Shown piece after piece: positions 7,130-29,499 of a stretch of DNA of 29,509 nucleotides. Position 1 is the first letter of the stretch, and every line of letters begins with the position of its first letter. The position numbers were made by a program, and so were the translations under genes. The notes under the pieces were generated by a model, which saw only the letters and a list, made by a program, of their open reading frames with translations, had not been told where the DNA came from and searched no databases. Source of the DNA: a virus (taxonomy: Duplodnaviria; Heunggongvirae; Uroviricota; Caudoviricetes); IMG/VR virus record IMGVR_UViG_2718218398_000001, positions 1 through 29,509 of that record; one strand, 5' to 3'.

Positions 7130-7134
7130 TTTGG

Positions 7135-7152: not shown

Positions 7153-7163
7153 ACACATTTTAT

Positions 7164-8195
7164 CTAATTCAATGAATAATCTTTGAAGGCTATTATTTTT
7201 TTCTTTAGCCAAATATTAATTTCTACAAGTCTTTTTTGTAAAGGAGTTAACTCATTTCGCACAAAAACGCAACTGGCTTTTTCTATATCCCCAAACCCCC
7301 CAACATTGTTTGGCATTATCCCCATCATCTGCGGCGGCACACGATGCGCCGCCATCATGTCATCCCGACTTACGTTCTTGATGTTAAGAAATTCATCCTT
7401 CGCCGCGACTTCTGACAATGGGATGATCTGAAGCCCGTCTTTTTTGCCGTTAGGCGAGTACATAAACAGGTTGCGGAAGTTGCCTGGACCTTTGGCACTT
7501 TTCATCGCGTTGCGGAGGTTGTTCACATCCTCCTGATTCTGCGCGGCGTCGGTCATGTACATGATGAAGCCTGCATGGCTGCCGTTGATGTAATACTTAC
7601 GGCGGAACAGCGTGGCGGACTCGTTGAGCAGGGCGGATGGAATGGCAGAAAGATAGCCGGGCAGGCCGTAGATCTCCTGGTTGATGTCCGGCTCCATCAG
7701 ATGAAAAATGCTGCCTTTCGTGAACTGATACGGCTGGGTTGTCATACCGTATTGCACAAACCAGTAGGTATCCAGGTCTAACCCACGTCGGGTGTATTTT
7801 GCCAGAGCAGGCTCAAGGGCGATAACTTCACCGAACCGGTTCGTGCGTTTCTCCAGGTAAGCGTTACCAAATACCAGATAGTCCTGCACAAAACGTGAAA
7901 AAGCCTGCTGGCTGAGAAGCGGGTGAGGGATGTAGGTACTGGTCAGAATGTTGCATTTCACCGCAATTGGTGAACTGTGATGCACGGCAGCGCGGAAGGT
8001 TCGCGCCAGTCCGTCAAAACTCACTGGCGGCTCATACCAGCGATCTGTCTGTACGCATTCTACATAGTCCAGCAGTTCGCGGCGGTCCAGAACAGGAACG
8101 GGATCGCCAAAGCTGAATGCTTCGGCTGAAGTCTGGCTTTTGTGCTGAATCTGGTTCGTCGACACAGCGCGGTTCTTCTTACTCTTTCCCATCAA
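7164..8195 (-). CDS. Q: Portal protein gpQ
   Basis: 343-aa product, the same size as P2 gpQ and collinear with it by recall. Lies directly upstream of terminase P on the same strand, with the 4-bp overlap typical of P2 Q/P. The last ~45 codons are encoded in AT-rich DNA. Confidence 0.85.
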   Translation of the reverse strand: MMGKSKKNRAVSTNQIQHKSQTSAEAFSFGDPVPVLDRRELLDYVECVQTDRWYEPPVSFDGLARTFRAAVHHSSPIAVKCNILTSTYIPHPLLSQQAFSRFVQDYLVFGNAYLEKRTNRFGEVIALEPALAKYTRRGLDLDTYWFVQYGMTTQPYQFTKGSIFHLMEPDINQEIYGLPGYLSAIPSALLNESATLFRRKYYINGSHAGFIMYMTDAAQNQEDVNNLRNAMKSAKGPGNFRNLFMYSPNGKKDGLQIIPLSEVAAKDEFLNIKNVSRDDMMAAHRVPPQMMGIMPNNVGGFGDIEKASCVFVRNELTPLQKRLVEINIWLKKKIIAFKDYSLN

Positions 8196-9959
8196 AAAAT
8201 CTCCACAATATTGCTGGTATTGGCGGACTCGCCCTGCAGCGGTTCGTTAAACAGTGCGTGCATTGTTGCCCACGCCAGATCGGCATGGCTGGCTTCTTCG
8301 CTGCGGCTGGCTTCATAGGTCGGGCGGTTGCCGCTGGCGGTGGTGGCGCGACGGATTGCCATAAATGACTGCGCTATGTCGGTGTGTCCGGCGTCAAACT
8401 CCAGACGGCGGTGACTGATAATGTCGTAGGCCTTGAGTACCAGGGCATTTTTAACGTTGGGGTTGTAGACAAACTCCCGGACGGCAGGAAAAAACGCTTT
8501 CACGTTCTCGTAAACCCCGTGACCGACGCCGGTTGAGTCGATACCGATGTATGTCACGTTGTACTGTTCAGTCAGTTTTTTGATGGCGTCAGCCTGGGCG
8601 CGGAAGTCCATCCCGCGCCACTGGTGACGCTCAAGAATGCGGAACTTACCGCCCGGCACGGCTGGCGGTGCCACCACCACGCATCCGGCGCTGTCGCCGT
8701 TCTGCGTACCTTTTGCCGGGTCATAACCGATCCACACTTCGCGCCAGCCAAACGGGCGCAGCGCCAGTGCATGAAAGTCGGTCCAGACTTCCCAGCTGTC
8801 CACCATGCACGCCTGTAGTTCGCTGAGCGGGAACACGGACGCGAGATCGTCCACAAACTCGCACATCAGCAGGTTCTGGTATTCGTCCGGGCTGTATTCC
8901 ATGCGCAACTGGTCAAGGTCGAACAGGTTACAGCCACCGCGCACCGCATCTTCCACGGTGACTATCTGGCGGTATTGCCCGTCAGCGCACAGCAGGCCGG
9001 GGGCCAGATTGCTGTGGGACAGATCAATGTCCACCTTGTCGGCTTTGTTGCGTCCACGGTTGAACAGCGCACCGGACCAGAACGGATAAGCACTGTGGGT
9101 CAGGCTGGATGGTGTGGAAAAAATAGGTCTGCCGCCATTTCTTGTGAATAGCCATACCGGAAGCCACTTTGCGTAGCTCCTGAAATTTCGGTATCCAGAA
9201 ATATTCATCCAGATACAGGTTGCCGTGATAACTCTGGGCCGTGCGGGCATTGGTGCCGAGGAAGTAAAGCGTGGCCCCGTTAGGAAGCACCATCGGATCG
9301 CCTTTCAGTTCCACATCCACTTCTTTGGCGAAGTCGATGATGTACTGCTTAAAGACGTGGGCCTGTGCCTTACTGGCGGAAAGGAAAATCTGGTTACGTC
9401 CGGTAAGCAGGGCGTCAATCAGGGCTTCACGGGCAAAGTAAAAGGTCGCGCCGATCTGGCGTGACTTCAGCAGGTTGCGGATGCGGTTGGTTTTTCCGGC
9501 TTCCCACCAGTGGCGCTGGTAGTTGAACATGGAGGAATGGAAGATTTCTTCCAGCTTCTCAATCTGTTCATCGGTGAAGACATTCTTTTCCGGCTGACGG
9601 CGCGGGCCTTTGTTGCGGTTGGCGACGTTAGGGTTTAAGTCAGCTTCGTTGCCGCCATTGTTAAACTTGCCGATCCGCGCGTGGCGCTCAGACTGGCGCG
9701 CCAGCAGGTCAATCTCTTTGAAATCTTTCCCTTCTTTGTGCTCCTTCATAATGAGCTGGCAGTAGCGTGCGGCGGTGGTGAGCTGCATCTGATCCAGCGG
9801 CCCATAGTCACCCCACTTGTCGCGTTTTTTCCAGCTGTGAACGGTTGCAACTTTCTCGCCCAGCATTTCAGCAATGCGGGCGACGCGGTATCCCTGAAAG
9901 TACAGCAGCATGGCCTGCCGACGGGGATCGAGATCTGCGGGTGTCAGTGTGGTGTTCAT
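8192..9959 (-). pseudogene. P: Terminase large (ATPase) subunit gpP, frame-disrupted
   Basis: Two overlapping minus-strand ORFs (9024..9959 and 8192..9250) together span 1768 bp, about 589 aa, the size of P2 gpP. One frame change in the 9024..9250 overlap. Confidence 0.85.
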
Positions 9960-10005
9960 GGCACAAACCTACAGCCTTGAATGAAGGCTTTCCCCGCCTG
10001 CGGTT

Positions 10006-10023
10006 TGTGTGGTTGTCGGTACA
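10006..10023. promoter_or_regulatory. Ogr/Delta-type late-promoter activator site (TGT-N12-ACA) in the P/O divergent region
   Basis: tgt gtggttgtcggt aca, about 80-95 bp upstream of the O start (10102), in the divergent P-O intergenic region where P2 carries its late promoters. Confidence 0.45.
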
Positions 10024-10101
10024 AATACCGCGCATTGTTTCACTGCCCCCATCACCGCAACCATAAGGCTCCAGTAAGTTTTTTCTAACGGAGCACGGCT
10101 C

Positions 10102-10934
10102 ATGACAGTGAAAGCAAAGCGTTTTCGCATCGGGGTGGAAGGTGCCACCACCGATGGACGCGAAATCCAGCGAGAATGGCTGGAACAGATGGCAGCCAGC
10201 TACAACCCGGCGGTGTATACCGCGCTGATTAACCTTGAGCACATCAAGTCTTATCTGCCGGACAGCACCTTTAACCGCTACGCAAGGTGACGGCGCTGTT
10301 TGCTGAAGAAATCACGGAAGGTCCACTGGCAGGCAAGATGGCGCTGTATGCCGACGTTGAGCCAACGGAGTCCCTGGTGGAGCTGGTGAAAAAAGGCCAG
10401 AAATTATTCACCTCTATGGAAGTCAGCCCGAAGTTCGCTGATACGGGCAAAGCCTACCTGGTTGGCCTGGCTGCCACTGATGACCCTGCCAGTCTGGGCA
10501 CTGAAATGCTGACATTCAGCGCCAGTGCAGCCCATAACCCGCTGGCAAACCGCAAGCAGAACCCCGCCAATCTCTTTACCGCTGCAGAGGAAACGGTGAT
10601 CGAACTGGAAGAAGTCCAGGACGACAAACCGTCCCTGTTTGCCCGTGTCACGGCGCTGTTTACCAAAAAAGAGCAGTCCGATGATGCCCGGTTCTCTGAT
10701 GTGCATAAGGCCGTGGAACTGGTCGCCACTGAACAGCAAAACCTGAGTGCGCGCACCGAAAAATCCCTGTCTGAACAGGAAGAACGCCTGTCTGAGCTGG
10801 AGACTTCCCTGCAGGAGCAGCAAACCGCCTTTAACGAACTGGTGGATAAGCTGAGTCATGAAGACAGCCGCCAGGACTACCGCCAGCGTGCAACAGGCGG
10901 CAACGCCCCCGCTGACACTCTGACCAATTGCTGA
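10102..10934 (+). pseudogene. O: Capsid scaffolding protein gpO, one frame change near 10285
   Basis: ORFs 10102..10290 and 10287..10934. N-terminus FRIGVEGATTDGREI...INLEHIKSYLPD and C-terminus ...SDDARFSDVHKAV...ATGGNAPADTLTNC match P2 gpO. The frame break is consistent with loss of one G in a GG run (RYG). Confidence 0.85.
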
Positions 10935-10950
10935 TGGAGCATAAAACCCA

Positions 10951-12017
10951 ATGAAGAAGAATACCCGTTTTGCTTTTAACGCTTACCTGCAGCAGCTGGC
11001 GCGTCTGAACGGTGTGGCAGTTGAAGAACTGTCCAGCAAGTTCACTGTGGAGCCGTCTGTGCAGCAGACGCTGGAAGACCAGATCCAGCAGTCCGCCGCT
11101 TTCCTGACGCTGATTAACGTCACGCCCAGTGACTGAGCAGTCCGGTCAGCTGCTGGGGCTGGGTGTTGGCAGCACCATTGCCGGAACCACTGATACCACC
11201 GCGAAAGAGCGTGAACCTGTCCGATCCGACGCTGATGGTCGATGTGGAATACAAATGTGAACAGACCAACTTTTGACACGGTGCTGACCTACGCGAAGCT
11301 GGACCTGTGGGCGAAGTTTCAGGATTTCCAGGTGCGTATCCGTGACGGCCATCGTGAAACGTCAGGCACTGGACCGCATCATGATCGGCTTTAAACGGCG
11401 TGAAGCGTGCGAAAACCTCCAACCGTAGTGAAAACCCCGCTGCTGCAGGATGTGAACAAAGGCTGGCTGCAGAAAATCCGTGAGGATGCACCGGATCACG
11501 TCATGGGCAGCACCACCACGGGTGGTGAAACCACACCGGGCGCGGTGAAAGTCGGCAAAGGTGGAGAATATGCCAACCTGGACGCCGTGGTGATGGATGC
11601 TGTCAATGAGCTTATCGACGTGGTCTACCAGGACGATGACGATCTGGTGGTGATTTGCGGTCGTGAGCTGCTGTCTGACAAATATTTCCCGCTGGTCAAC
11701 AAAGAGCAGGAAAACAGTGAAAAACTGGCTGCCGATATGAATCATCAGTCAGAAACGCATGGGTGGCCTGCAGGCCGTGCGTGCGCCGTTCTTCCCGCCG
11801 AATGCGCTGCTGATCACCCCGTCTGGATAACCTGTCCATTTACTGGCAGGAGGACACCCGCCGCCGTTCGGTTATCGACAACCCGAAACGTGACCGGATT
11901 GAAAACTTTGAATCCGTTAACGAAGCCTATGTGGTTGAGGACTACCGCTGCGCAGCACTGGTGGAAAACATCCAGATTGGCGACTTCAGCGCCGCCGCCG
12001 CAGAAGCCGGAGCATAA
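10951..12017 (+). pseudogene. N: Major capsid protein gpN, multiply frame-disrupted
   Basis: N-terminus MKKNTRFAFNAYL...KFTVEPSVQQTL (10951..11136) and a later segment VKVGKGGEYANLDAVVMDAVNELIDVVYQDDDDLVVICGRELLSDKYFPLVNKEQENSEKLAAD match P2 gpN in different frames. At least four frame changes between 11136 and 11880. Stop at 12015..12017. Confidence 0.85.
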
Positions 12018-12020
12018 ACC

Positions 12021-12662
12021 ATGAGCCTGAGTCCCGCACGGCAGCATCGCCTGCGCGTTCAGGCTGAACAGGCCGCCCGCGAGGGCGGCAGTGTTCGCCA
12101 CGCGTCGGGCTATGACCTGATGCTGCTGCAACTGGCGGAAGACCGCCGCCGTCTCAAGGGCGTTCAGTCCACGGTCAAAAAAGCGGAAATCAAGGTGGAG
12201 CTGCTGCCGAAGTACGCCGCCTGGGCAGAGGGTGTCCTGGCTGCCGGAGGCGCTCAACAGGATGACGTGCTGATGTACGTGATGCTGTGGCGCATTGATG
12301 CCGGAGATTATGCCGGGGCGCTGGAGATCGGGCGTCATGCCCTGCGTCATGGCTGGGTGATGCCGCTGGGTAACCGCAACGTGCAGACCGTGCTGGCAGA
12401 GGAAATGGCAGATGCAGCCCAGAGCGCAATGCTTGCCGCCACCGGCTTTGATGCCGATCTGTTGCTGCAGACGCTGGAGCTGACAGACGGTATGGATATG
12501 CCGGACCAGTCACGGGCGCGTCTGCATAAAGCGATTGGCGCTGTCCTGAGTGAAAACAATCCGGCGTCCGCCCTTAATCATCTCAACCATGCGTTACAGC
12601 TCGATCCCCGCTGTGGCGTGAAAAAAAGACAAACAGCAGCTGGAGCGCAGACTGCGCAATGA
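12021..12662 (+). CDS. M: Terminase small (endonuclease) subunit gpM
   Basis: 213-aa product collinear with P2 gpM (…DDVLMYVMLWRIDAGDYAGALEIGRHALRHGW…). The extreme C-terminus may carry a 1-nt indel in the A-run at 12614..12620. Confidence 0.8.
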   Translation: MSLSPARQHRLRVQAEQAAREGGSVRHASGYDLMLLQLAEDRRRLKGVQSTVKKAEIKVELLPKYAAWAEGVLAAGGAQQDDVLMYVMLWRIDAGDYAGALEIGRHALRHGWVMPLGNRNVQTVLAEEMADAAQSAMLAATGFDADLLLQTLELTDGMDMPDQSRARLHKAIGAVLSENNPASALNHLNHALQLDPRCGVKKRQTAAGAQTAQ

Positions 12663-15921: not shown

Positions 15922-15939
15922 TGTATCAGCACTGATACA
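15922..15939. promoter_or_regulatory. Ogr-type late promoter element upstream of V (TGT-N12-ACA, near-perfect palindrome)
   Basis: ttgtatcag cac tgatacaa, with TGT at 15922..15924 and ACA at 15937..15939, in the S-V intergenic region. Confidence 0.45.
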
Positions 15940-17815: not shown

Positions 17816-18413
17816 TCTGCTGCCACCGGGTTCAACTTCACTGGAGCGCCGACTGGCGCAAACCTGTAGCGGGATTTCTGATCTGCAGGTGCCGCTGCGT
17901 GACTTGTGGAATCCGGCTACCTGTCCGGTCAGCTTCCTGCCTTATCTCGCCTGGGCGTTCTCTGTGGATCGCTGGGACGAGGGCTGGACAGAAAGCGTCA
18001 AACGCCAGGTAGTGAAGGATGCTTTTTATATTCATCAGCATAAAGGAACCACCAGTGCCGTGCGGCGGGTGGTGGAACCGTTCGGATTCCTGATCCGCAT
18101 TATTGAGTGGTGGCAGACCGGAGAGGCTCCGGGCACGTTTCGCCTGGATATCGGCGTGCAGGACCAGGGCATCACTGAAGATACCTATCTGGAACTTGAG
18201 CGACTGATAAGCGATGCCAAACCATGTAGCCGCCACATGATCGGCATGTCCATCAATCTGCAGACCAGCGGCCCGCATTGGGTGGGAGCCGCCAGCTATC
18301 TTGGCGAAGAAATCACGATCTATCCGTATATCAACGAAACAATTATTTCTGGCGGCACCGCGCATGAAGGCGGGGCGGTCCATGTTATTGACACAATGAG
18401 AGTGAATCCATGA
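17808..18413 (+). CDS. I: Baseplate assembly protein gpI
   Basis: 201-aa product in conserved P2 order. Confidence 0.8.
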   Translation: MNSLLPPGSTSLERRLAQTCSGISDLQVPLRDLWNPATCPVSFLPYLAWAFSVDRWDEGWTESVKRQVVKDAFYIHQHKGTTSAVRRVVEPFGFLIRIIEWWQTGEAPGTFRLDIGVQDQGITEDTYLELERLISDAKPCSRHMIGMSINLQTSGPHWVGAASYLGEEITIYPYINETIISGGTAHEGGAVHVIDTMRVNP

Positions 18414-19792
18414 GCACAAAATTTTATACCCTGCTGACGGATATTGGCGCGGCGAAACTTGCCAGCGCCGCCGCGCTCGGTGTGCCGCTAAAAATTACCC
18501 ATATGGCGGTGGGCGATGGTGGCGGAACATTGCCGACGCCGGACGCAAAGCAGAGTGCACTGGTAAATGAGAAACGTCGGGCTGCGCTGAATATGCTCTA
18601 TATCGACCCACAGAACAGCAGCCAGATTATTGCTGAACAGGTGATCCCTGAAAACGAGGGCGGTTGGTGGATACGTGAAGTGGGCCTGTTTGATGAGTCA
18701 GGGGCATTGATTGCCGTGGGCAACTGCCCGGAAAGCTATAAGCCGCAACTGGCTGAAGGCAGCGGGCGTACCCAGACCGTGCGCATGGTGCTGATTACCA
18801 GCAGCACGGACAATATCACCCTGAAAATCGACCCTGCTGTAGTGCTGGCAACCCGCAAGTATGTGGATGACAAGGCACTGGAGCTGAAGGTGTACGCGGA
18901 TGATCAGATGGCAAAACATCTTGCCGCACCGGACCCGCATTCACAGTATGCAGCCAAAGAAAGTCCTACGTTTACCGGGACACCCAAAGCGCCAACGCCA
19001 GCGACGGGGAATAACACCACGCAGGTTGCGACCACCGCATTTGTTCAGGCGGCACTGACGGCTCTTATTAATGATGCGCCAGCCACGCTGGACACGCTGA
19101 AAGAAATAGCCGTAGCCATTAACAATGATCCGAAATTCAGTACCACCATTAACAATGCGCTGGCACTGAAAGCGCCGCTGTCGAGTCCGGCACTCACCGG
19201 AACGCCAACCGCACCGACTGCGGCACAGTCGGTCAACAATACACAGATTGCCACCACGGCATTTGTGAAATCGGCGATTGCGGCAATGGTGGGTTCTGCA
19301 CCTGCGGCACTGGATACACTGAACGAACTGGCGGCGGCGCTGGGGAATGACCCGAACTTTGCCACGACAATGCTTAATGCACTGGCAGGTAAACAACCGC
19401 TGGACAATACGCTGACTAATTTGAGTGGAAAGGATGTTGCTGGTCTTCTCGCATACCTTGGTTTGGGAGAAGCGGCAAAACGGAATGTGGGAACAGGGGA
19501 AAATCAGATACCTGATATGTCAGCTTATTCATCAGGATCTGGCTGGCAAAAATTGCCTGATGGTTCAATTGAACAGTGGGGAAGAATTAATTTCCCGAAT
19601 AACGCCGCGGCGGTATCTACAAATGTGACTTTCACCATTCCTTTTACGCAGGAGCCAGACGTAGTGATTGTATATGACGGCGGTTTTGGTGGTGGGAATA
19701 TGTGGGGCGCAACTAACTGGACGAAAACAGGTTTCGTTGCTCATTGTAACTATGGCTTTGAAGGTGGAGCCTTCTACGCGAAAGGGCGTTAA
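18410..19792 (+). CDS. H: Tail fibre protein gpH (constant N-terminal part plus invertible C-terminal receptor-binding part)
   Basis: 460-aa product with a conserved N-terminus (MSTKFYTLLTDIGAAKLA...). The C-terminal region after the LGLGE crossover point (about 19459) lies inside the invertible segment. Confidence 0.85.
   Translation: MSTKFYTLLTDIGAAKLASAAALGVPLKITHMAVGDGGGTLPTPDAKQSALVNEKRRAALNMLYIDPQNSSQIIAEQVIPENEGGWWIREVGLFDESGALIAVGNCPESYKPQLAEGSGRTQTVRMVLITSSTDNITLKIDPAVVLATRKYVDDKALELKVYADDQMAKHLAAPDPHSQYAAKESPTFTGTPKAPTPATGNNTTQVATTAFVQAALTALINDAPATLDTLKEIAVAINNDPKFSTTINNALALKAPLSSPALTGTPTAPTAAQSVNNTQIATTAFVKSAIAAMVGSAPAALDTLNELAAALGNDPNFATTMLNALAGKQPLDNTLTNLSGKDVAGLLAYLGLGEAAKRNVGTGENQIPDMSAYSSGSGWQKLPDGSIEQWGRINFPNNAAAVSTNVTFTIPFTQEPDVVIVYDGGFGGGNMWGATNWTKTGFVAHCNYGFEGGAFYAKGR
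18962..19402 (+). repeat. Tandem protein-coding repeat in H (two units of about 73 aa, phage tail-fibre repeat)
   Basis: SPTFTGTPKAPTPATGNNTTQVATTAFVQAAL...DTLKEIAVAINNDPKFSTTINNALALKAPL is followed by SSPALTGTPTAPTAAQSVNNTQIATTAFVKSAI...DTLNELAAALGNDPNFATTMLNALAGKQPL. Confidence 0.7.
19446..19471. other. Inversion crossover site (hix/gix/cix-like, 26 bp) inside H
   Basis: ttctcgcatacc TT ggtttgggagaa: 12-bp imperfect inverted half-sites around a central TT. 21 of 26 positions match the reverse complement of the site at 21304..21329, including a perfect 14-bp block. Confidence 0.75.
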
Positions 19793-19794
19793 TT

Positions 19795-20235
19795 ATGAAA
19801 TATTTGTATGTTGATAATCTGGCGTACCCTTATGCCCTCCAGTCTGTTTACGCTGCAAAAGGCCAATGGCCCGAAGGTAAAGGCGTGGATATAGACGAAG
19901 CTATTTTCAGGGAATATTTCCATGATACGCCGCCTGACGGTAAGTACAGAATTACCGGAGACGATGGAATGCCAGCATGGGCAGATGTTCCACCGCCAAC
20001 ACGTGAAGAACAAATTGCATCAGCCGAAACTAAAAAGCAGCAATTGATTAATCAGGCCAACGATTATATGAACAGTAGACAATGGGCTGGTAAAGCGGCT
20101 ATTGGTCGTCTGAAAGGTGAGGAACTGGCGCAATATAATTTGTGGCTGGATTATCTGGACGCACTGGAGCTGGTCGATACTTCCAGTGCACCAGATATTG
20201 AATGGCCTACTCCTCCGGCAGTTCAGGCCAGATGA
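19795..20235 (+). CDS. Tail fibre assembly chaperone (Tfa, gpG-like), orientation-specific copy
   Basis: 146-aa product with the conserved Tfa C-terminus (...LWLDYLDALELVDTSSAPDIEWP). Immediately follows H. Confidence 0.8.
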   Translation: MKYLYVDNLAYPYALQSVYAAKGQWPEGKGVDIDEAIFREYFHDTPPDGKYRITGDDGMPAWADVPPPTREEQIASAETKKQQLINQANDYMNSRQWAGKAAIGRLKGEELAQYNLWLDYLDALELVDTSSAPDIEWPTPPAVQAR

Positions 20236-20809
20236 CATCCGGCGCGGTGCTGATATCTGTTGCCGTCACCGCGTCAATGTAATCCAGCACAGCGTTAAGC
20301 CGGGTTGTTTCTGCCTGCGTCAGTTTCCGCCCGGCCTGTAATTTCAGTTGAATCAGACTAATGGAAGCCATTGCAGTATCAATCAGTGACTGACGCTGTG
20401 CTTCTGCCGCGTCTACTGCGGCGCGATGCTGTGCCTCAGTATCGGTCACCCATTTCTCACCATCCCATTTATCGTATGGCGTTAATGGGGCGATAGTGGT
20501 TGTATTTTCGGGGTAATCACCCGGAGTTGTGATTTCTTTGGTGTCTCCCGTTTCGGTGTTATAGACGATTTCACCGCGATGGTCTGGCACATATTCCCAT
20601 GAGTTTAAATCTGCCGAACGGCAGATTGCATAACCAGCCTTATGTATACCAGGTTCATCCAGACAGGAATATGCCGGGATACCAACACCAACGGCAAGAT
20701 ATTCATTTGAAGTGGAAATATATTCCCGAGTTTCACCATCATAGCTATAGACGGTAATATTCCCCGCCTTCGTGGCAATAAGCTCGCTATTTAATACAGC
20801 GTTATCCAT
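20207..20809 (-). CDS. Alternative tail fibre assembly chaperone (Tfa') for the inverted orientation
   Basis: 200-aa minus-strand product with a Tfa-type C-terminus (...LNAVLDYIDAVTATDISTAPDVIWPELPEE), converging on and overlapping the plus-strand tfa by 29 bp. Confidence 0.75.
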   Translation of the reverse strand: MDNAVLNSELIATKAGNITVYSYDGETREYISTSNEYLAVGVGIPAYSCLDEPGIHKAGYAICRSADLNSWEYVPDHRGEIVYNTETGDTKEITTPGDYPENTTTIAPLTPYDKWDGEKWVTDTEAQHRAAVDAAEAQRQSLIDTAMASISLIQLKLQAGRKLTQAETTRLNAVLDYIDAVTATDISTAPDVIWPELPEE

Positions 20810-21316
20810 TATGCAGCTCTCACAATATAATTAAATGACGTATTACGTGGTCGTACTGATATCCATGCACTATAAAAACCGTCTTCTGCTGTTCTCTGCG
20901 TTCCCGTAATGGAGTTATCAGACGAAGCTGGAACATAGTTACTGCTGTCGCCAGCTTTAGAATTAGCAGGTATCCCGCTTGTTTGTACTTTATCGGCGGA
21001 AGCAAATGCTATCCCCACCTTGACAGAGGTTGTTGTATCAACCCCGTAATAATCCTGTAACGCTGTACGAATAAAAGTTGCATCCTGACCACTGAGTAGT
21101 GATCGTCCACTGTCTACACCGCGTCCATCATCCCAGCCACGAATAAACTCACCGCGTAAATCAGGCAATTTATTTGTCGGGTAAGCCTTTGCCAGTTCCG
21201 GGTATTCTTCAGCAGAAAAAGCTGCACCATTGCATTTCAACCAGCCTGTCGGTGGTGTAGCTGAAGGCCACGGAACAGGCACACCAACCGGTAATGCTGA
21301 ACCTTCTCCCAAACCA
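20809..21316 (-). CDS. Alternative tail fibre C-terminal (receptor-binding) segment, promoterless, expressed only after inversion
   Basis: The minus-strand ORF encodes ...LGLGEGSALPVGVPVPWP..., sharing the LGLGE junction with H at the crossover site. Its stop overlaps the Tfa' start (TAATG). The six-frame ORF extends to 21357, but sequence beyond the site is outside the segment. Confidence 0.7.
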
Positions 21317-21329
21317 ACGTTTAAGAAAA
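21304..21329. other. Inversion crossover site (hix/gix/cix-like, 26 bp), inverted partner of 19446..19471
   Basis: ttctcccaaacc AA cgtttaagaaaa: the central dinucleotide AA is complementary to the TT of the partner site. Lies just upstream of the invertase gene. Confidence 0.75.
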
Positions 21330-21384
21330 TGCAGAGGTAACAGCTAACTGGCATCATCTCCGGTTTTTATTCAGGGGGATGATC

Positions 21385-21951
21385 ATGCTTATTGGCTATG
21401 TACGCGTGTCAACAAATGACCAGAACACCGATTTGCAACGTAATGCACTGAACTGCGCGGGATGTGAGCGGATTTTTGAGGACAAAATCAGTGGCACTAA
21501 GTCCGACAGACCGGGGCTGAAAAAACTACTCAGGACACTATCGGCAGGAGACACGCTGGTTGTCTGGAAGCTGGACAGGTTGGGGCGCAGTATGCGGCAT
21601 CTTGTTACGCTGATAGAAGAGTTGCGCCAGCGTGGTGTGAATTTCAGAAGCCTGACTGACAGTATTGATACCAGTACCCCAATGGGCCGTTTCTTTTTTC
21701 ATGTCATGGGTGCCCTGGCTGAAATGGAACGCGAACTGATAGTTGAACGTACCAGGGCAGGGCTGGCTGCAGCTCGTGCCAAAGGCAGAGTAGGTGGACG
21801 CCGTCCTAAGTTGACCACCGAACAGTGGGCACAGATTGGGCGTTTACTCGAGGCCGGAGAATCAAGACAGCGTATTGCACTGATTTTTGATGTAGGCGTT
21901 TCTACCATTTATAGAAAATTTCCGGCAAATAAGATCAATGAATCCCCCTGA
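21385..21951 (+). CDS. pin: Serine recombinase, DNA invertase of the Gin/Hin/Cin/Pin family
   Basis: MLIGYVRVSTNDQNTDLQRNAL... is near-identical at the N-terminus to Gin/Cin/Pin, including catalytic Ser in YVRVSTNDQ. C-terminal HTH (GVSTIYRKF). Start is probably ATG 21385; the ORF opens at 21379. Confidence 0.9.
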   Translation: MLIGYVRVSTNDQNTDLQRNALNCAGCERIFEDKISGTKSDRPGLKKLLRTLSAGDTLVVWKLDRLGRSMRHLVTLIEELRQRGVNFRSLTDSIDTSTPMGRFFFHVMGALAEMERELIVERTRAGLAAARAKGRVGGRRPKLTTEQWAQIGRLLEAGESRQRIALIFDVGVSTIYRKFPANKINESP

Positions 21952-21999
21952 ATCAGCATTATGTTGATTATCCCTGCAAGCAGACAAATACCGTTATTT

Positions 22000-22017
22000 T
22001 GTGTGAATAACGACACA
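22000..22017. promoter_or_regulatory. Ogr-type late promoter element upstream of FI (TGT-N12-ACA)
   Basis: tgt gtgaataacgac aca, about 75-95 bp upstream of the FI start codon (22094). Confidence 0.45.
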
Positions 22018-22093: not shown

Positions 22094-23267
22094 ATGGCTC
22101 AGGATTACCACCACGGGGTGCGCGTTGTTGAAGTCAACGAAGGCACCCGATCTATTACCACGGTGAGCACCGCCATCGTGGGTATGGTCTGCACGGGCGA
22201 TGATGCCGATGCAAAAATGTTTCCTCTTAATAAACCCGTGCTGATCACTGATGTGCTGACTGCCAGCGGTAAAGCGGGTGAGTCCGGTACTCTGGCCCGT
22301 TCGCTGGATGCCATCGCTGACCAGGCAAAACCCGTGACCATTGTTGTGCGTGTGCCGCAGGGTGAAACGGAAGACGAAACCACGACCAATATCATCGGCG
22401 CAGTGACTGCTGAAGGTAAAAAAACAGGTATGAAAGCCCTGTTATCTGCCCAGTCACAGCTCGGCGTTAAACCGCGCATTCTCGGCGTGCCAGGCCACGA
22501 CACCAAGGCGGTGGCTACTGAGTTGCTGAGCGTGGCGCAAAGCCTGCGTGGATTTGCTTACCTGTCAGCGTATGGCTGCAAGACAGTGCAGGAGGCGATC
22601 ACTTACCGCGAAAACTTCAGCCAGCGCGAAGGGATGCTGATCTGGCCTGACTTTACTGGCTGGGACACGGTGCTGAATGCCGAAGCAACGGCATATGCCA
22701 CCGCTCGTGCGCTTGGTCTGCGCGCCAAAATTGACGAGCAGACCGGATGGCACAAAAGCCTGTCCAACGTGGGCGTGAACGGTGTCACCGGAATTTCTGC
22801 AGATGTGTTCTGGGATCTGCAGGACCCGGCAACCGATGCAGGTCTGCTGAACCAGAACGACGTCACCACGCTTGTGCGTAAAGACGGTTTCCGCTTCTGG
22901 GGTTCCCGCTGCCTGAGTGATGACCCGCTCTTTGCCTTCGAAAACTACACCCGCACGGCGCAGGTGCTGATGGACACGATGGCAGAAGCACACATGTGGG
23001 CGGTGGATAAAACCGCTTAACCCGTCGCTGGCCCGCGACATTATCGAAGGTATCCGCGCCAAAATGCGCAGCCTGGTCAGTCAGGGCTATCTCATTGGTG
23101 GTGATTGCTGGCTGGATGAGTCGGTGAACGACAAAGACACGCTGAAAGCCGGAAAACTCACCATCGACTACGACTACACGCCAGTGCCGCCACTTGAAAA
23201 CCTGATGCTGCGTCAGCGCATCACCGATCAGTACCTGGTGAATTTCGCCAGCCAGGTCAGCGCGTAA
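22094..23267 (+). pseudogene. FI: Tail sheath protein gpFI, one frame change near 23010
   Basis: ORF 22094..23020 (308 aa) plus ORF 23064..23267 in another frame give about 390 aa, matching P2 FI (396 aa). RBS AGGAGG precedes the ATG. Confidence 0.85.
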
Positions 23268-23276
23268 GGGGACAAC

Positions 23277-23792
23277 ATGGCTTTACCACGCAAATTAAAA
23301 CACCTGAACCTGTTTAACGACGGGAACAACTGGCAGGGGATCGTTGAGTCGCTGACGCTGCCGAAATTTACCCGCAAATATGAGAAGTATCGCGGCGGCG
23401 GAATGCCGGGTGCGGTGGATGTGGATCTGGGGCTTGATGACAGTGCGCTGGACACAGAATTTTCCATTGGTGGTACTGAATTGCTGCTGTTTAAACAGAT
23501 GGGTAAAGCCACGGTGGATGGCATCCAGCTGCGCTTTACCGGCTCTATTCAGCGTGACGATACCGGGGAAGTGCAGGCCGTGGAGCTTGTCGTGCGTGGA
23601 CGTCACAAAGAAGTGGATTCCGGCGAGTGGAAGACGGGCGAAAGCAACACCACCAAAGTGACCAGTACCAACAGCTACGCGAAGCTGACCATCAATGGTG
23701 AGGTGCTCTATGAAGTGGACCTTATCAACATGGTGGAAATTGTGGACGGTGTGGACCTGATGGAAGCGCACCGCAACGCCCTCGGCCTCTGA
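23277..23792 (+). CDS. FII: Tail tube protein gpFII
   Basis: 171-aa product directly after FI, the size and order of P2 FII. Confidence 0.85.
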   Translation: MALPRKLKHLNLFNDGNNWQGIVESLTLPKFTRKYEKYRGGGMPGAVDVDLGLDDSALDTEFSIGGTELLLFKQMGKATVDGIQLRFTGSIQRDDTGEVQAVELVVRGRHKEVDSGEWKTGESNTTKVTSTNSYAKLTINGEVLYEVDLINMVEIVDGVDLMEAHRNALGL

Positions 23793-23846
23793 TATATCTG
23801 AACGGCGCGGGATACCGCGCCAGAACCCAATTGACAGGACAGCAAA

Positions 23847-24284
23847 ATGAGCGATAAGCAGACTGAAAAGACCATTCAACTGGATACCCCATCAAGCGCG
23901 GTAAAACAGAAATCACCGAAATTGTGCTGCGTAAACCGCAGTCCGGTGCGCTGCGCGGTACACGCCTGCAGGCCATTATGGATATGGATGTAAACGCGAT
24001 GATGACCGTGATCCCCCGCATCTCCCAGTCCCGGCACTGACTGCACAGGAAATTGCAGAGATGGACCCGGCAGATCTCACTGCCATGTCGGTTGAGGTTG
24101 TCACTTTTTTGTTGAAGAAGTCGGTGCTTGCCGGTTTACCGACAGCCTGACGGTTGACGATCTGGTGGCAGATATCGCCACCATTTTTCACTGGCCGCCA
24201 TCCGTTACTGACGTTATGCCGCTGACCGAAGTGCTGGAATGGCGGTATAAAGCGATTCAGAGAAGCGGGGCCAACGATGAGTGA
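23847..24284 (+). pseudogene. E: Tail assembly chaperone gpE/E' with T6G programmed -1 frameshift site; additionally frame-disrupted near 23890
   Basis: ATG 23847. Conserved slippery heptamer TTTTTTG at 24105..24111 (the P2 E/E' site). The N-terminal frame is broken in a C-run: gataccccatc (C4) needs C5 to read DTPIKRGKTEITEIVLRKPQSG. The E' frame ends at 24282..24284. Confidence 0.7.
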
Positions 24285-27200
24285 TAACAACCTGCGTCTG
24301 CAGGTCATTCTTAATGCGGTTGACAAGCTTACCCGCCCATTTCGATCTGCGCAGGCCAGTTCAAGAGAACTGGCTGCTGCTGTCAAAAAATCCCGCGATG
24401 CAATAAAGCAGCTTGATCAGGCCGGGAGCAGTCTGGACAGCTTCCGAAAGCTGCAGGCAGAAAATCAGAAATTAGGCGACAGGCTGAACTATGCCCGCCA
24501 GCGTGCAAATTTGCTCAGTCAGGAACTGGGAGCGATGGGGCCGCCTTCGCAACGTCAGGTTGTTGCTCTGGGCCGTCAACGGCTGGCTGTTCAGCGCCTG
24601 GAAGAACGCCAGAAAAAGCTGCAGCAGCAGACGGCGCTTGTGCGTGCTGAACTGTACCGGGCGGGAATTTCTGCGAAAGACGATGCGGGAGCAACTGCCC
24701 GTTTAGCCCGTGAAACATCACGTTATAACCAGGAACTTTCGAAACAGGAGGCGCGGCTGAAGCGACTGGGGGAAGCTCAGCGCAGGATGAATGCAGCGCG
24801 TGCCAGTTATGCCCGTTCGCTGGAGGTGCGTGATCGTATTGCAGGTGCCGGAGCCACCACCACGGCTGCAGGGCTGGCAATGGGCGCAACCAGTGATGGC
24901 GGCAGTAAAAAAGCTATACCAGCATGGAAGATGCCATGAAAGGTGTGGCAAAGCAGGTCAATGGTCTGCGTGACGATAATGGCAACCGCACTGCACGTTT
25001 TTATGAAATGCAGGATGCCATCAAGGCTGCCAGCCGAACAGTTGCCGATGGAAAACGGTGCGGTGGATTTCGCTGCACTGGTTGAAGGTGGTGCGCGCAT
25101 GAACGTCGCAAACCCTGACGACAGTTGGGAAGATCAGAAACGTGACCTGCTGGCCTTCGCCAGTACGGCAGCAAAGGCGGCAACAGCCTTTGAGCTGCCA
25201 GCGGATGAACTGTCAGAAAGTCTGGGGAAAATCGCCCAGCTCTACAAAATCCCCACCCGCAATATTGAACAGCTCGGCGATGCGCTGAACTATCTGGATG
25301 ATAACGCCATGTCGAAAGGGGCAGACATCATTGATGTGATGCAACGTCTGGGCGGTGTGGCTGACCGTCTGGATTATCGTAAAGCGGCGGCGCTGGGTTC
25401 CACCTTCCTGACACTGGGCGCTGCGCCAGAGGTTGCAGCCAGTGCAGCAAACGCGATGGTGCGTGAATTGTCCATTGCCACCATGCAAAGCAAGAGTTTC
25501 TTTGAAGGGATGAATCTGCTGAAACTCAATCCTGAAGTGATTGAAAAGCAGATGACGAAGGATGCGATGGGAACCATCCAGCGCGTGCTGGAGAAGGTAA
25601 ACGCGCTGCCGCAGGACAAGCGCCTGTCTGCCCATGACTATGTTGTTTGGTAAAGAGTTTGGCGATGAATGCGGCGAAACTGGCAAACAACCTGCCGGAA
25701 CTGCAGCGTCAGTTAAAACTGACAGCGGGCAATGATGCGCTCGGCTCCATGCAGAAAGAATCCGACATTAACAAGGATTCACTTTCTGCGCAGTGGTTGC
25801 TGGTCAAAACCGGAGCGCAGAACACCTTCAGCAGTCTGGGCGAAACGCTGCGCCAGCCGCTGATGGATATTCTGTACACGGTGAAAAGCGTCACGGGGGC
25901 GTTGCCGTCGCTGGGTGGAAGCTAACCCGGAACTGACAGGCACACTGATGAAAGCAATCGGCTGTTGTGGCTGCGGTTACCGTCGGCCTAGGCACCTTAG
26001 CGGTGGCGATGGCTGCAGTGCTGGGGCCGCTGGCAGTGATCCGTCCTGGGATTCTCTGTGCTGGGTATCAAAACGTTACCTTCCGTTATGGCAGCAGTAA
26101 CTCGAACCAGCAACGCGTTGTCCCTGGTTGGCTGGCGCTCCACTGGCACTGCTGCGACGCGGGCTTGCTTCATCGGGCAACGCCGCAGGTTTACTTACTG
26201 CGCCGTTGTCGTCTTTGCGCCCGCACGGCATCACTGACGGGAAATGTCCTGAAAACTGTAAGCAGGTGCGCCAGTTGCACTTTTGCGGTCTGGATTATCC
26301 GGTTTTACGTGCTGTTGCTGTGATGTTTATGAATCCTCTGGCGGTACTGCGCGGTGGACTGGCCGCCGCAGGCACGGTGCTGCGAGTACTGGCATCTGGT
26401 CCACTGGCGATGCTGCGCGTTGCCCTGTATGCCATATCTGGGTCTGTTAGGTGCTCTGCTCAGTCCGATAGGTCCTTGTGGTTACTGCACTGGCGGGCGT
26501 GGCGCTGGTTTGTCTGGAAATACTGGCAACCCATCACCGCATTTCTCGGTGGCGTGGTGGAAGGATTCAAAGCGGCGGCAGGTCCATCAGTGCAGCGTTC
26601 GAACCGCTTAAGCCCGTGTTCCAGTGGATTGGCGACAAAGTGCAGGCGCTGTGGGGGCTGGTTTACTGATCTGCTGACGCCCGTTAAGTCGACCTCTGCC
26701 GAACTGCAGAGCGCAGCGGCAATGGGGCGGCGATTCGGGGAGGCACTGGCGGAAGGGCTGAATATGGTCATGCATCCGCTGGACTCCCTGAAATCCGGCG
26801 TTTCCTGGTTGCTGGAGAAGCTCGGCATTGTCAGTAAAGAGGCCGCAAAGGCAAAACTGCCGGAAAGCGTGACGCGTCAGCAACCTGCGACGGTGAATGC
26901 AGACGGTAAAGTGATGATGCCATCGGGTGGTTTTCCATCATGGGGATATGGCTTTGCGGGGATGTATGACAGCGGCGGGTATATCCCGCGCGGGCAGTTT
27001 GGCATCGTCGGTGAAAACGGACCGGAAATTGTTAACGGCCCGGCAAATGTGACCAGCCGGAGAAATACAGCTGCACTGGCTGCCGTTGTTGCCGGAATGA
27101 TGGGCGTTGCTGCCGCGCCAGCAGAGCTTCCACCGTTGCACCCTTGGCACTTCCCGCGAAAGGTGGAGAAGCAATTGTGAGTCGCGCAGCCACTGTGCCG

Positions 27201-27368
27201 CTCGTTCAACGGATTGAGGCACCGACGCAGATCATCATTCAGACGCAGCCAGGACAAAGTGCGCAGGATATTGCGCGGGAGGTGGCACGCCAGCTTGATG
27301 AACGTGAACGCAGGCTGAAGGCAAAAGCCAGGAGTAACTACAGCGATCAGGGGGGATACGACGCATGA
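24277..27368 (+). pseudogene. T: Tail tape measure protein gpT, multiply frame-disrupted
   Basis: ATG 24277 overlaps the E' end. Coiled-coil N-terminus and hydrophobic/Gly-Ala-rich internal repeats (PLALLRRGLASSGNAAGLL; NPLAVLRGGLAAAGTVL) spread over ORFs 24277..24939, 24943..25653, 25647..25925, 26128..27180 and 27144..27368. Stop overlaps the U start. Confidence 0.8.
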
Positions 27369-27850
27369 TGATGGTGCTGGGATTGTACGTGTTTATGCTG
27401 CGCACCGTTCCGTATCAGGAACTGCAGTATCAACGCAGCTGGCGACATGCGGCAAACAGTCGGGTAAACCGACGTCCGTCCACGCAGTTTCTGGGACCGG
27501 AAAACGACATGCTGACGCTTTCCGGTGTTCTTATGCCGGAAATAACAGGCGGCAGGCTGTCGTTGCTGGCACTGGAGCAGATGGCAGAACAGGGGAAAGC
27601 ATGGCCCCTGATTGAAGGCAGCGGCACGATTTACGGCATGTATGTGATTGAGGGACTGAATCAGACTAAAACGGAGTTTTTCCGCGACGGTATGCCGCGC
27701 CGGATTGAGTTCACCCTGTCGCTCAAACGAGTGGATGAATCCCTGTCCGATATGTTCGGTGATCTCAGTGCGCAACTGAATAATCTGCAGGACACGGCAA
27801 CGTCTGCCTTAAGCGATATCAGTAAAACGGTGGGAGGGCTGCTGTCGTGA
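27365..27850 (+). CDS. U: Tail protein gpU
   Basis: MMMVLGLYVFMLRTVPYQ...AWPLIEGSGTIYGMYVI...RRIEFTLSLKRVDESL is collinear with P2 gpU (MMLALGMFVFM...RAWPLLDGTGMIYGMYVI...). Confidence 0.85.
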   Translation: MMMVLGLYVFMLRTVPYQELQYQRSWRHAANSRVNRRPSTQFLGPENDMLTLSGVLMPEITGGRLSLLALEQMAEQGKAWPLIEGSGTIYGMYVIEGLNQTKTEFFRDGMPRRIEFTLSLKRVDESLSDMFGDLSAQLNNLQDTATSALSDISKTVGGLLS

Positions 27851-28566
27851 ATTTCAGCTCTGAACTGCTTAACAAAGGCAACAAAACTCCCGCATTCAGC
27901 ATCAGTATTGAGGGCAGGGATATCACCACTGTGCTGGATAACCGCCTGATGAGTTTGACGCTGACGGATAACCGGGGCTTTGAAGCGGACCAGCTTGATC
28001 TGGAGCTGGATGACGCTGACGGAAAAATCGTGCTGCCGCGCCGTGGTGCGGTTATTACGCTGGCGCTGGGCTGGAAGGGGCAGCCGCTTTTCCCGAAAGG
28101 GGCATTCACAGTGGACGAGATTGAACACACTGGCGCACCGGACCGCCTGACTATCCGGGCGCGAAGTGCTGATTTTAGGGAAACGCTGAATACCCGCCGT
28201 GAAAAATCGTGGCACAAGACCACTGTCGGGAAGTGGTGAAGGAAATAGCCGCGCGTCATAAGCTGAAGATGGCACTGGGTAAAGACCTGTCGGATAAGCC
28301 CGTGAGCATATAGACCAGACTAATGAGAGTGACGGCAGTTTTCTGATGCGGCTGGCGCGCCAGTACGGTGCCATCGCGTCGGTGAAAAATGGCAATCTGT
28401 TATTCATCCGGCAGGGACAGGGCAAAAGCGCCAGCGGTAAACCACTGCCGGTGATCTCAATCACACGTAAGGACGGCGACAGTCACCGCTTTACCCTGGC
28501 AGATCGCGGAGCCTACACGGGCGTAATTGCCAGCTGGTTGCATACCCGCGAACCCGCGAAGAAAGA
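27847..28566 (+). pseudogene. D: Tail protein gpD (late control gene D), frame-disrupted and 3'-truncated
   Basis: GTG 27847. The N-terminal 130 aa and the segment 28346..28560 (RLARQYGAIASVKNGNLLFIRQG...) match gpD in different frames. Homology stops at about 28560, roughly 240 of the expected ~387 codons. Confidence 0.7.
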
Positions 28567-29305
28567 AAGCACACGGATTATCCCAGCTATCTGGTTGCGG
28601 ATATTAATCCTGATTTAATCAACCTCTATAAAAAGGTTGCCGCTGATTGTGAATCGTTTATATCTCGCGCCAGAGTTTTATTTTAAGGAAGCAAACAGGG
28701 AGGTGGCTTATTACAACATAAGGCAGGAGTTTAATTACTCAACTGAAATTACTGATTTCATGAAAGCGGTATATTTCCTGTATCTCAATCGTCACGGTTA
28801 CCGTGGGTTATGTCGCTATAACAAGAGCGGGCATTTCAACATTCCCTACGGTAATTATAAAAATCCGTATTTCCCTGAAAAAGAAATTTGCGCATTTGCA
28901 GAGAAAGCCCAACGAGCAACGTTTATCTGCGCCAGCTTTGATGAAACGCTGGCGATGTTGAAGGCGGGGGATGTGGTGTATTGCGATCCGCCGTATGACG
29001 GTACGTTTTCCAGCTATCACACTGATGGTTTCACTGAAGATGACCAGTATCACCTGGCATCCGTTCTTGAACATCGGTCATCAGAAGGACATCCGGTCAT
29101 TGTTTCTAACAGTGACACATCCCTGATCCGTTCGCTGTATCGCAATTTTACTCACCACTACATCAAGGCAAAACGCAGCATCGGCGTAGCAGCTGGTGAG
29201 AGTTCTGCAACAGAAATCATCGCTGTTTTCTGGGGCGCGCTGCTGGGTGGATTTGATCCTTCGCGTGGCGTGGATAGTTCTGCCGTGTACGGAGTACGTG
29301 CATGA
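28567..29305 (+). pseudogene. dam: DNA adenine methyltransferase (Dam family) fragment, 5'-truncated and frame-disrupted
   Basis: TDYPSYLVADINPDLINLYKK (from about 28567) aligns to E. coli Dam NTDFSRYILADINSDLISLY, i.e. about 45 N-terminal residues including the SAM-binding FxGxG motif are missing. Downstream has [18 protein letters not shown] and catalytic DPPY (VYCDPPYDG). Frame changes near 28670 and near the 3' end. Confidence 0.75.
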
Positions 29306-29499
29306 GACATGCTGATATGAACAACTGCAGCGGCTTTAACGAGGCCGCCGCAGCATTCTCATGGAACAGCCCGAAAAAGGCGATTAACCCTTATCTGGAC
29401 CCGGCGGAAGTTGCGCCGGTTTCTGCGCTTTCAAACCTGATCACTCTGTACGCTGCCGATAACAAGCAGGAACAAACTGCGCCGCGAGGCACTGAGTGA
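29302..29499 (+). CDS. Hypothetical protein (65 aa)
   Basis: ORF whose ATG overlaps the dam stop (ATGA). No recognisable motif. Confidence 0.3.

Follow-up and report, generated by a model that had tools for sequence, protein, structure and literature searches.

The tail-fibre region of this temperate phage raises the question of what purpose is served by a second fibre tip, which is encoded with a chaperone of its own on the strand opposite to the fibre gene H and is followed by a gene for a DNA invertase. The window, which is the whole stretch of 29,509 nucleotides that was analysed, carried late genes in the order V, W, J, I, H, chaperone, and then FI, FII, E, T, U and D, as in the P2 family (Peduoviridae). 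Our analysis suggests, with a probability of about 0.9, that the locus is a two-state, invertase-driven tail-fibre host-range switch of a P2-family (Fels-2/186-like) phage.

An earlier note on this DNA had described the backbone as P2-type. This was right for the gene order, but most of the structural genes showed 83-86% DNA identity to Fels-2, and by sequence the backbone resembles Fels-2/186 more than P2. The same note had proposed that the module replaced Z/fun. In P2 itself, fun(Z) lies between G and FI, and a homologue of fun(Z) was absent from the window (tblastn, E > 2), which supports the proposal by position. As an event, however, the replacement cannot be inferred and is a comparison with one reference phage, because Fels-2 already has the identical layout. 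At the downstream edge of this slot, a TGT-N12-ACA dyad matched the position of the annotated activator site of P2 pF. On position only, it is likely to be the Ogr-type activator site of the late F-operon promoter, the motif itself being at chance level over the whole window (9 found vs 7.9 expected).

Two fibre cassettes between inverted crossover sites

Analysis of the H ORF (18410-19792, plus strand) revealed a Phage_tail_fib domain at the N-terminus (Pfam, residues 1-150, E 1e-64) and a Gp53-like_C domain at the tip, and the constant part was 53% identical to the first 330 residues of P2 H. Downstream of the constant part, the segment consisted of two convergent cassettes, one per strand, each formed by a fibre tip and its own assembly chaperone (Table 1). 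The ORFs and the Pfam domains agreed on this anatomy, which had been read before as the C-terminus of H plus tfa on the plus strand and a second fibre tip plus tfa' on the minus strand. The two chaperone genes overlapped tail to tail by 29 nt. The C-terminal half of the tip-A chaperone was 73% identical to e14 TfaP, whereas the tip-B chaperone was 89% identical to e14 TfaE and tip B was 58% identical to e14 StfE.

Table 1. Positions of the features of the fibre locus within the window
Feature	Position	Strand	Remarks
Constant N-terminal part of H, ~349 codons	18410..19457	+	outside the invertible segment
Left crossover site	19446..19471	+	inside the H reading frame, encodes LLAYLGLGE; 3 differences vs e14 left site
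Fibre tip A, 110 aa	19460..19792	+	Gp53-like C-terminal domain PF21882, E 3.5e-7; fused to H, ON
tfa, chaperone for tip A, 146 aa	19795..20235	+	Pfam Caudo_TAP, E 4e-32; ON
tfa', chaperone for tip B, 200 aa	20207..20809	-	Pfam Caudo_TAP, E 5e-32; OFF
Fibre tip B, 168 aa	20809..21315	-	Pfam Collar (phage tail collar domain), E 7e-16; OFF
Right crossover site	21304..21329	+	1 difference vs e14 right site
DNA invertase gene, 188 aa	21385..21951	+	Pfam Resolvase (E 2e-53) and HTH_7
Candidate Fis-dependent recombinational enhancer	21403..21474	+	5' coding part of the invertase gene; by homology
TGT-N12-ACA dyad	22000..22017	+	precedes the FI start by ~85 nt; slot boundary on the downstream side

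As sequenced, the fibre was 460 residues long and ended in tip A. When the segment was flipped in silico, H was fused in frame to tip B, and an uninterrupted fibre of 518 residues was produced. The expressed fibre read ...AYLGLGE in both orientations, whereas the silent copy as written read NVGLGE. The LGLGE junction thought to be shared by both variants was therefore confirmed for the expressed protein, but the part common to the two stored copies was GLGE. The domains of the two tips, Gp53-like_C and Collar, are unrelated, which is consistent with the recognition of different receptors by tips A and B.

The segment was bracketed by two 26-bp sites in inverted orientation, each composed of two 12-bp half-sites around a 2-bp core. 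The left site (L) was TTCTCGCATACC-TT-GGTTTGGGAGAA with the core at 19458-19459, and the right site (R) was TTCTCCCAAACC-AA-CGTTTAAGAAAA with the core at 21316-21317, so that the cores match once the sites are aligned. The core-to-core distance was 1860 bp, and the earlier description of the inverted sites, their TT/AA cores and the length of ~1.86 kb was exact in every point. The inner half-sites of L and R were identical (TTCTCCCAAACC), but the outer half-sites were not. Both sites aligned with e14 pix, P1 cix, Mu gix and the Fels-2 sites, with the half-site TTCTCnnAAACC around a 2-bp core, and comparison with the inversion-site consensus, a check that had been recommended, showed that the conserved positions of the gix/cix/pix family were present in both. 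When a family-consensus pattern was searched with up to 3 mismatches allowed, L and R were the sole matches in the 29.5-kb window, and none of 100 dinucleotide-preserving shuffles of the window contained any match to the pattern. The inner half-site occurred exactly twice.

The invertase and its candidate enhancer

The gene following the segment encoded an invertase of the Gin/Hin family, as had been recognised earlier with the correct end coordinate. The protein was a small serine recombinase with an N-terminal catalytic domain (Resolvase) and a C-terminal helix-turn-helix (HTH_7). It was 85% identical to e14 PinE, 86% to Fels-2 Fin, 77% to P1 Cin and 74% to Mu Gin, and it was matched by the Gin structure 3UJ3 of the PDB (E 1e-92). 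Its transcription leads away from the segment, an orientation shared with Mu, e14 and Fels-2. Translation is likely to start at ATG 21385 rather than at 21379, judging from the N-terminus MLIGYVRVST of Gin, Cin and Pin; the motif MLIGYVRVS9T was invariant in the invertase and these three proteins, and the catalytic Ser9 was kept. The substitutions H107Y in Hin and M114V in Gin make these enzymes Fis-independent (hyperactive). Neither of them was present in the invertase, which kept H106 and M114, and the PDB Gin chains showed a difference of M to V relative to its M114. The residues reported as specific to Fis-dependent invertases are Q151, R154 and L155 of Hin together with basic residues at 47, 48 and 51 (PMC3798978), and these were equivalent to Q150, R153, L154, K46, K47 and R50 of the invertase, respectively. 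With Ser9 and the residues of the Fis-dependent type intact, the enzyme does not appear to be inactive, an outcome that the earlier note had listed as evidence against a switch.

The candidate enhancer in the 5' part of the invertase gene aligned without gaps to the annotated P1 cin enhancer (P1 31678-31749) with 78% identity, compared with 68% in the rest of the gene. Two G-N13-C 15-mers, at 21406 and 21455, were positioned as in cin, gin and pin, but the excess of conservation at synonymous sites was small (5 of 19 codons in the enhancer region vs 10 of 93). On the basis of this homology, the region is probably a Fis-dependent enhancer.

A scan for sigma-70 promoters of the invertase or the silent cassette gave hits that were no commoner than in shuffles, and none was suitably placed; the scan was uninformative because the late promoters of P2 do not follow the sigma-70 consensus. 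The fold of 21325-21384 was not superior to shuffled sequence (z = -1.4), and a terminator-like hairpin at 21346-21365, in the gap separating the right site from the invertase, is therefore not claimed. The invertase ORF was flanked by a perfect 12-nt inverted repeat (21369-21380 and 21942-21953), which was treated as chance: e14, Mu, P1 and Fels-2 did not share it, and KP12 alone had both arms.

In the proposed mechanism, the late operon V-W-J-I-H would read into the 1.86-kb invertible segment, and only the cassette facing the constant part of H would be translated, in frame through the LGLGE encoded by the site. In the sequenced state, the cassette of the Gp53-like tip and its 146-aa chaperone would be on, and that of the collar-domain (StfE-like) tip and the TfaE-like chaperone would be off. 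By analogy with the Hin/Gin/Cin family, invertase dimers would bind the two 26-bp sites, and the enhancer lying within the first ~90 nt of the invertase gene would, with Fis bound, join the sites on supercoiled DNA. Ser9 would then cut both strands at the 2-bp core (TT/AA), one subunit pair would rotate by 180 degrees, and the DNA would be rejoined. Inversion in lysogens would create a mixed population, from which induction would yield virions with two receptor specificities. The analysis showed the anatomy, the fusion in frame, the family to which sites and enzyme belong, and the inversion in nature of closely matching modules at the same sites; the dependence on Fis, the recombination chemistry and the change of host range are inferred.

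Natural inversion of near-identical modules and the state of this copy

Near-identical modules were found to invert naturally at exactly these sites. In complete E. coli genomes, 66 records matched the native arrangement colinearly and 86 matched the flipped construct. The loci of LS4 and NQ3 were identical over 6.7 kb save one exact inversion, with 0 mismatches, and those of OkiPb01698 and OkiPb01682 were likewise identical over 6.7 kb apart from an exact inversion (0 mismatches). The breakpoints in both pairs were confined to the inner half-site and core of the same two sites, the left and right sites of these inverting loci being identical to L and R. In the nearest phage record, KP12, the segment was in the flipped orientation. 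The observation of a single orientation, which would have spoken against the earlier proposal, was thus not what these genomes contained. In P2-like prophages of EPEC, inversion has been detected by whole-genome sequencing, and four variants of a three-repeat locus were confirmed by PCR (PMC4272514); inversion in Fels-2 was inferred from a comparison of the LT2 and LT7 genomes (PMC7953296).

The condition of the window itself suggested that the switch might be a fossil, that is, an intact module carried by the remains of a dead prophage or by a mis-assembled contig, with no effect on virions, comparable to the P segment of cryptic e14. The module-bearing contig was circularly permuted. Relative to KP12 and Fels-2, a truncated D was joined directly to a dam methylase gene at 28573-28576, and ~6.3 kb with the end of D, ogr, int and the repressor region was missing from the window. 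Compared with KP12, there were 52 indels, mostly single extra bases in the window, by which gpA, terminase P, sheath FI and tape measure T were split; should these indels be real, virions could not be made, and at the level of the phage the switch would be without effect. However, the indels were clustered, with none at 12.7-23.0 kb outside the invertible segment, and most of them extended a homopolymer tract, as is typical of errors in sequencing or assembly and not of decay. The module was intact, all five of its genes being as long as their RefSeq homologues, and intact relatives with the same module are common. A fossil is therefore a serious but rather unlikely explanation. The presence of more than two fibre variants, as in the Min system of p15B or the three-repeat P2-like prophage of EPEC, is very improbable: three-repeat variants do exist in P2-like prophages (PMC4272514), but the search at up to 3 mismatches gave no third crossover site in the window, where a shufflon needs at least three, and the segment held exactly two cassettes of tip and chaperone.

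The module could also serve the host in the lysogen. A short stub starts at ATG 21357/21354 on the minus strand (ORF 20809-21357), and inversion creates a second chimeric ORF by fusing the stub to whichever tip faces it; the product could block the adsorption of other phages, like StfE2, the inversion product of the e14 P segment, for which a block of T2 adsorption was reported (PMC12529663). Among relatives, RefSeq called the stub ORF with the segment in either orientation, the sequence context of its ATG (plus strand, ATGGCAT) was conserved in e14, Fels-2 and Mu, and the inner repeat is shared with the e14 P segment. On the other hand, no promoter was identified for the stub and no convincing ribosome-binding site either, what is conserved in the leader may be nothing more than the promoter and ribosome-binding site of the invertase on the opposite strand, and tip B was only 58% identical to StfE. 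Such a role would add to the host-range function and not compete with it, and we consider it improbable. The specific form in which the stub, fused to the silent tip and expressed in the lysogen, would mask outer-membrane receptors against other phages in the manner of StfE2 seems slightly more doubtful still; if it were true, the module in the fun(Z) slot of P2 would also act as a switchable superinfection exclusion.

The host-range switch, which we prefer, is an ordinary and already well-described phage device and carries little weight as a discovery; it shows that a Din-type inversion switch is recognisable from raw sequence by a reader without tools. The module is of some practical use. 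In annotation pipelines, the silent tip appears as a gene of its own for a “phage tail protein”. Prophage assemblies can differ or break at the segment because both orientations coexist, and the near-identity of the sites with e14 pix predicts cross-talk with the Pin recombinases of the host. For host-range engineering, the locus offers one more natural pair of exchangeable cassettes of tip and chaperone on a P2-type fibre.

Comparison with known inversion systems

The closest layout was that of Fels-2, a P2-family prophage of Salmonella LT2, in which I, H, tfa, tfa' and the H' tip (on the opposite strand), the invertase and FI follow in the identical order and the crossover site likewise encodes YLGLGE. 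The Fels-2 sites, however, have a TC/GA core like Mu gix instead of TT/AA, the tips and chaperones in the segment are other cassettes, and fin shared only 72% DNA identity with the invertase gene, compared with 86% identity of the proteins. The P segment of e14, a cryptic prophage of E. coli K-12, has the same layout of stfP-tfaP, tfaE-stfE on the opposite strand and pinE. The chaperone genes there overlap tail to tail by the same 29 nt, and the sites are nearly identical. However, e14 is a lambdoid remnant whose fibre gene is truncated, whereas the module described here is built on a full-length P2-type H and adjoins baseplate and sheath genes.

The G segment of Mu also has the constant part of the fibre outside and two convergent S/U cassettes inside, and gin lies just past the right site and is transcribed away from it, but the segment is 3 kb with a TC/GA core, its fibre tips are unrelated to those of the window at the BLASTP level, and Mu is a transposable phage and not a member of the P2 family. 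The C segment of P1 has the same TT/AA core, related half-sites and an annotated enhancer in the 5' part of cin, whereas cin is located on the opposite side and reads towards the segment, which is 4.2 kb long. P2 shares the order of baseplate, fibre and sheath genes but has a fixed fibre, with fun(Z) where the window has the second cassette and the invertase. The module is of the same type as the host-range switches of Mu G, P1 C, e14 P and Fels-2 fin, an arrangement that is common and already known.

Crossover sites and the fibre genes they join

Two sites lie in inverted orientation on either side of the fibre-tip cassettes, exactly where the earlier note had placed them. In a repeat search they formed the longest inverted pair in the window (27 nt, 81% complementary, spacing 1830 nt), with identical inner half-sites and unlike outer half-sites. 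When the whole 29.5-kb window was searched with a family-consensus pattern allowing up to three mismatches, only these two sites were matched, and the same pattern had 0 matches in 100 shuffles of the window sequence. Since, in addition, the inner half-site occurred exactly twice in the window, a chance repeat was ruled out. For comparison, family sites were taken from the annotated records of e14, P1, Mu and Fels-2. The sites of e14, the cryptic prophage of E. coli K-12, differed from those of the window at three positions on the left and one on the right. The inverted repeat of the e14 P segment has been given by Kirigo et al. (PMC12529663), and the inner repeat of the window matched it at 16/16 bases in the right arm and 15/16 in the left.

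Crossover sites of the window and of related systems (half-site, core dinucleotide, half-site)
System	Left site	Right site
Window	TTCTCGCATACC TT GGTTTGGGAGAA	TTCTCCCAAACC AA CGTTTAAGAAAA
e14	CTCTCGAAAACC TT GGTTTGGGAGAA	TTCTCCCAAACC AA CGTTTATGAAAA
P1 cix	CAATCCTAAACC TT GGTTTAAGAGAA	TTCTCTTAAACC AA GGTATTGGATAA
Mu gix	TTATCCAAAACC TC GGTTTACAGGAA	TTCCTGTAAACC GA GGTTTTGGATAA
Fels-2	TTCTCACATACC TC GGTTTAGGCGAA	TTCGCCTAAACC GA GGTTTATGAAAA

Positions of the features in the window
Feature	Position	Strand	Description
ORF	3277-4143		288 aa; without family
ORF	4393-4800	minus	135 aa; weak RTasHEPN/DRT match, E 4e-6
KAP-family P-loop NTPase	5447-7129		560 aa; matches candidate defence family PDC-S49, E 2e-25
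TGT-N12-ACA dyad	10006-10023		P/O divergent region
TGT-N12-ACA dyad	15922-15939		before V
H (tail fibre)	18410-19792		460 aa; P2-type tail-fibre N-terminal domain, Gp53-like C-terminal tip
Left site	19446-19471
Chaperone after H	19795-20235		146 aa; fibre assembly
Second chaperone	20207-20809	opposite to H	200 aa
Collar-domain fibre tip	20809-21315	opposite to H
Stub ORF fused to silent tip	20809-21357	minus
Right site	21304-21329
Leader	21318-21384		right site to invertase start
Invertase	21385-21951		188-aa serine recombinase; Resolvase and HTH_7 domains
Enhancer homologue	21403-21474		probable, by homology
TGT-N12-ACA dyad	22000-22017		before FI

The Gp53-like tip is ON in the state as sequenced, and the minus-strand cassette of collar-domain tip and chaperone is oriented back toward the right site. 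Tail to tail, the two chaperone genes share 29 nt, an overlap also seen between tfaP and tfaE in e14. In silico exchange of the segment, made at its core dinucleotides, gave a construct that encoded an uninterrupted 518-aa fibre (...AGLLAYLGLGE-GSALPVGVPVPWP...), so that a full fibre is encoded in either orientation. The joining peptide LGLGE is encoded by the crossover site itself in both orientations. The G+C content was 43-49% at 19450-21400, which covers the segment and the beginning of the invertase gene, vs about 55% in H, I and FI on either side; this is consistent with a horizontally exchanged or exchangeable cassette.

Inversion in related genomes

Evidence on orientation was drawn from public genomes with near-identical modules. 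The query was the native 3.7-kb arrangement from H to the start of FI, and a match was counted as colinear at a coverage of at least 80% in one place, a threshold that demands the correct orientation because about half of the query is flank and about half is segment. The native arrangement was colinear in 66 complete E. coli records, and the in-silico flipped construct in 86. Two pairs of isolates, LS4 and NQ3 from yak (chromosomes of 5,196,956 and 5,196,957 bp) and OkiPb01698 and OkiPb01682 from bovine faeces in Okinawa, each carried 6.7-kb loci that were base-identical, with 0 mismatches, save for one exact inversion. The inversion boundaries were confined in both pairs to 15 bp, comprising the inner half-site and the core, and the sites were the same as those of the window. 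These two otherwise base-identical locus pairs are judged decisive evidence for inversion of such near-identical modules. The segment was also flipped relative to the window in KP12 (OM835953.1), the closest phage record, with 97% identity over the backbone. As a whole, the observation of the earlier note at 19446-21951 was confirmed, and its interpretation as a G-segment-like tail-fibre inversion switch was supported.

Two of the compared records showed irregularities of their own. The KP12 record is filed under Vequintavirinae, as a Klebsiella phage; the clone is a 34.8-kb genome of the P2 family that shares about 96-99% identity with the window over matching blocks. Its fibre gene (28422-29974), in the flipped orientation, is annotated in two pieces of 1269 nt and 243 nt, which may point to a mislabelled record or to a frameshift in it. 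The 37.4-kb record CP019275.1, labelled E. coli plasmid p13P477T-2, contains the same prophage plus chromosomal ssrA, smpB and bamE, with many genes, the invertase among them, annotated as frameshifted. The record is probably a stretch of chromosome, either excised or mis-assembled, that is integrated at ssrA.

The invertase and its probable enhancer

The invertase was 86% identical to Fels-2 Fin, 85% to e14 PinE, 77% to P1 Cin and 74% to Mu Gin, and matched the solved Gin structures at E 1e-92. The nucleophile Ser9 is kept, as are H106 and M114, the positions of known Fis-independent mutants; the Gin chains in the PDB have V at 114. Residues Q150, R153 and L154, together with the basic K46, K47 and R50, correspond to Hin 151/154/155 and 47/48/51, positions uniquely conserved in Fis-dependent invertases according to McLean et al. 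(PMC3798978).

The Cin enhancer is annotated in the P1 record at nt 19-90 of cin, and this stretch aligned without gaps across the five invertase genes. The homologous region of the window was 78% identical to that of P1, vs 68% for the remainder of the gene, and contained two G-N13-C 15-mers, at 21406 and 21455, whose positions are shared with cin, gin and pin. Among conserved residues, 5/19 codons were fully identical in the enhancer region vs 10/93 elsewhere. Since this excess is small, the region is graded as a probable Fis-type enhancer by homology. With the leader upstream of the invertase, e14, Fels-2 and Mu share the conserved pattern …AAAATG.AG…ATGGCAT[C/G]AT…TTT…AGG[G/A]G…. The minus strand of this leader carries the ATG of the stub ORF. 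The leader may serve as the invertase promoter and ribosome-binding site, the stub start, or both.

In the proposed working of the switch, late transcription would extend across V, W, J, I and H; the tip and chaperone facing H would be expressed and the other pair would be silent. Invertase dimers would bind both sites, with activation coming from the Fis-bound enhancer when the DNA is supercoiled, and cutting at the TT/AA core via Ser9 would be followed by rotation and rejoining. For Hin, Gin and Cin this course of events is established, and we infer it here. Lysogen populations would become mixed, and two kinds of virion would therefore be released on induction.

State of the window and comparison with known systems

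The window is circularly permuted: in relatives its last base adjoins its first (29509/1). A truncated D runs straight into the dam (DNA adenine) methylase gene at 28573-28576, and about 6.3 kb of KP12 and Fels-2 is absent, comprising the end of D, ogr, the integrase gene (int), the repressor and the apl/cII region; either the window is a deletion derivative or the assembly is at fault here. Relative to KP12 there were 52 indels, most of them single extra bases extending a run of the same base, in the regions 1-400, 9118-12621, 23009-28572 and 28684-29474. They split the replication gene A (gpA; 373-1014 / 1028-2203) and terminase P (8192-9250 / 9024-9959), break the tape measure T into several ORFs and, by an extra A at 23009, divide the sheath FI (22094-23020 / 23064-23267). 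Between 12.7 and 23.0 kb no indel vs KP12 was found outside the invertible segment, and the five module genes were unaffected. This pattern resembles sequencing error more than it does decay. If the indels and the junction were real, the switch in the window's copy would be a fossil, like that of e14.

A cargo region at 2800-7200, between a DinI-like gene and the portal gene, occupies the slot equivalent to P2 tin/old; in Fels-2 this slot likewise carries a protein, one of similar size. The three TGT-N12-ACA dyads occupy positions expected for Ogr-activated late promoters, with a count of this motif in the whole window not above chance.

P2 itself has fun(Z) between G and FI, and no fun(Z) homologue was found in the window; the remark that the module takes the slot of Z/fun was therefore right. 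This is a known system, with the layout of Mu G-gin and of e14 P-pinE. Inversion has been found by whole-genome sequencing in two P2-like prophages of EPEC, one a simple two-state system and the other a three-repeat shufflon with four PCR-confirmed variants (Goldberg et al., PMC4272514), and an inversion in Fels-2 between LT2 and LT7 has been ascribed to fin (Zaworski et al., PMC7953296). The system is also common, since some part of the 3.7-kb query was matched in 3051 of 5426 complete E. coli genomes. Every gene from I to FI stands in the same order in Fels-2 (I, H, tfa, tfa', H' tip, invertase, FI); the backbone of the window is Fels-2/186-like, and the module is already present in that lineage.
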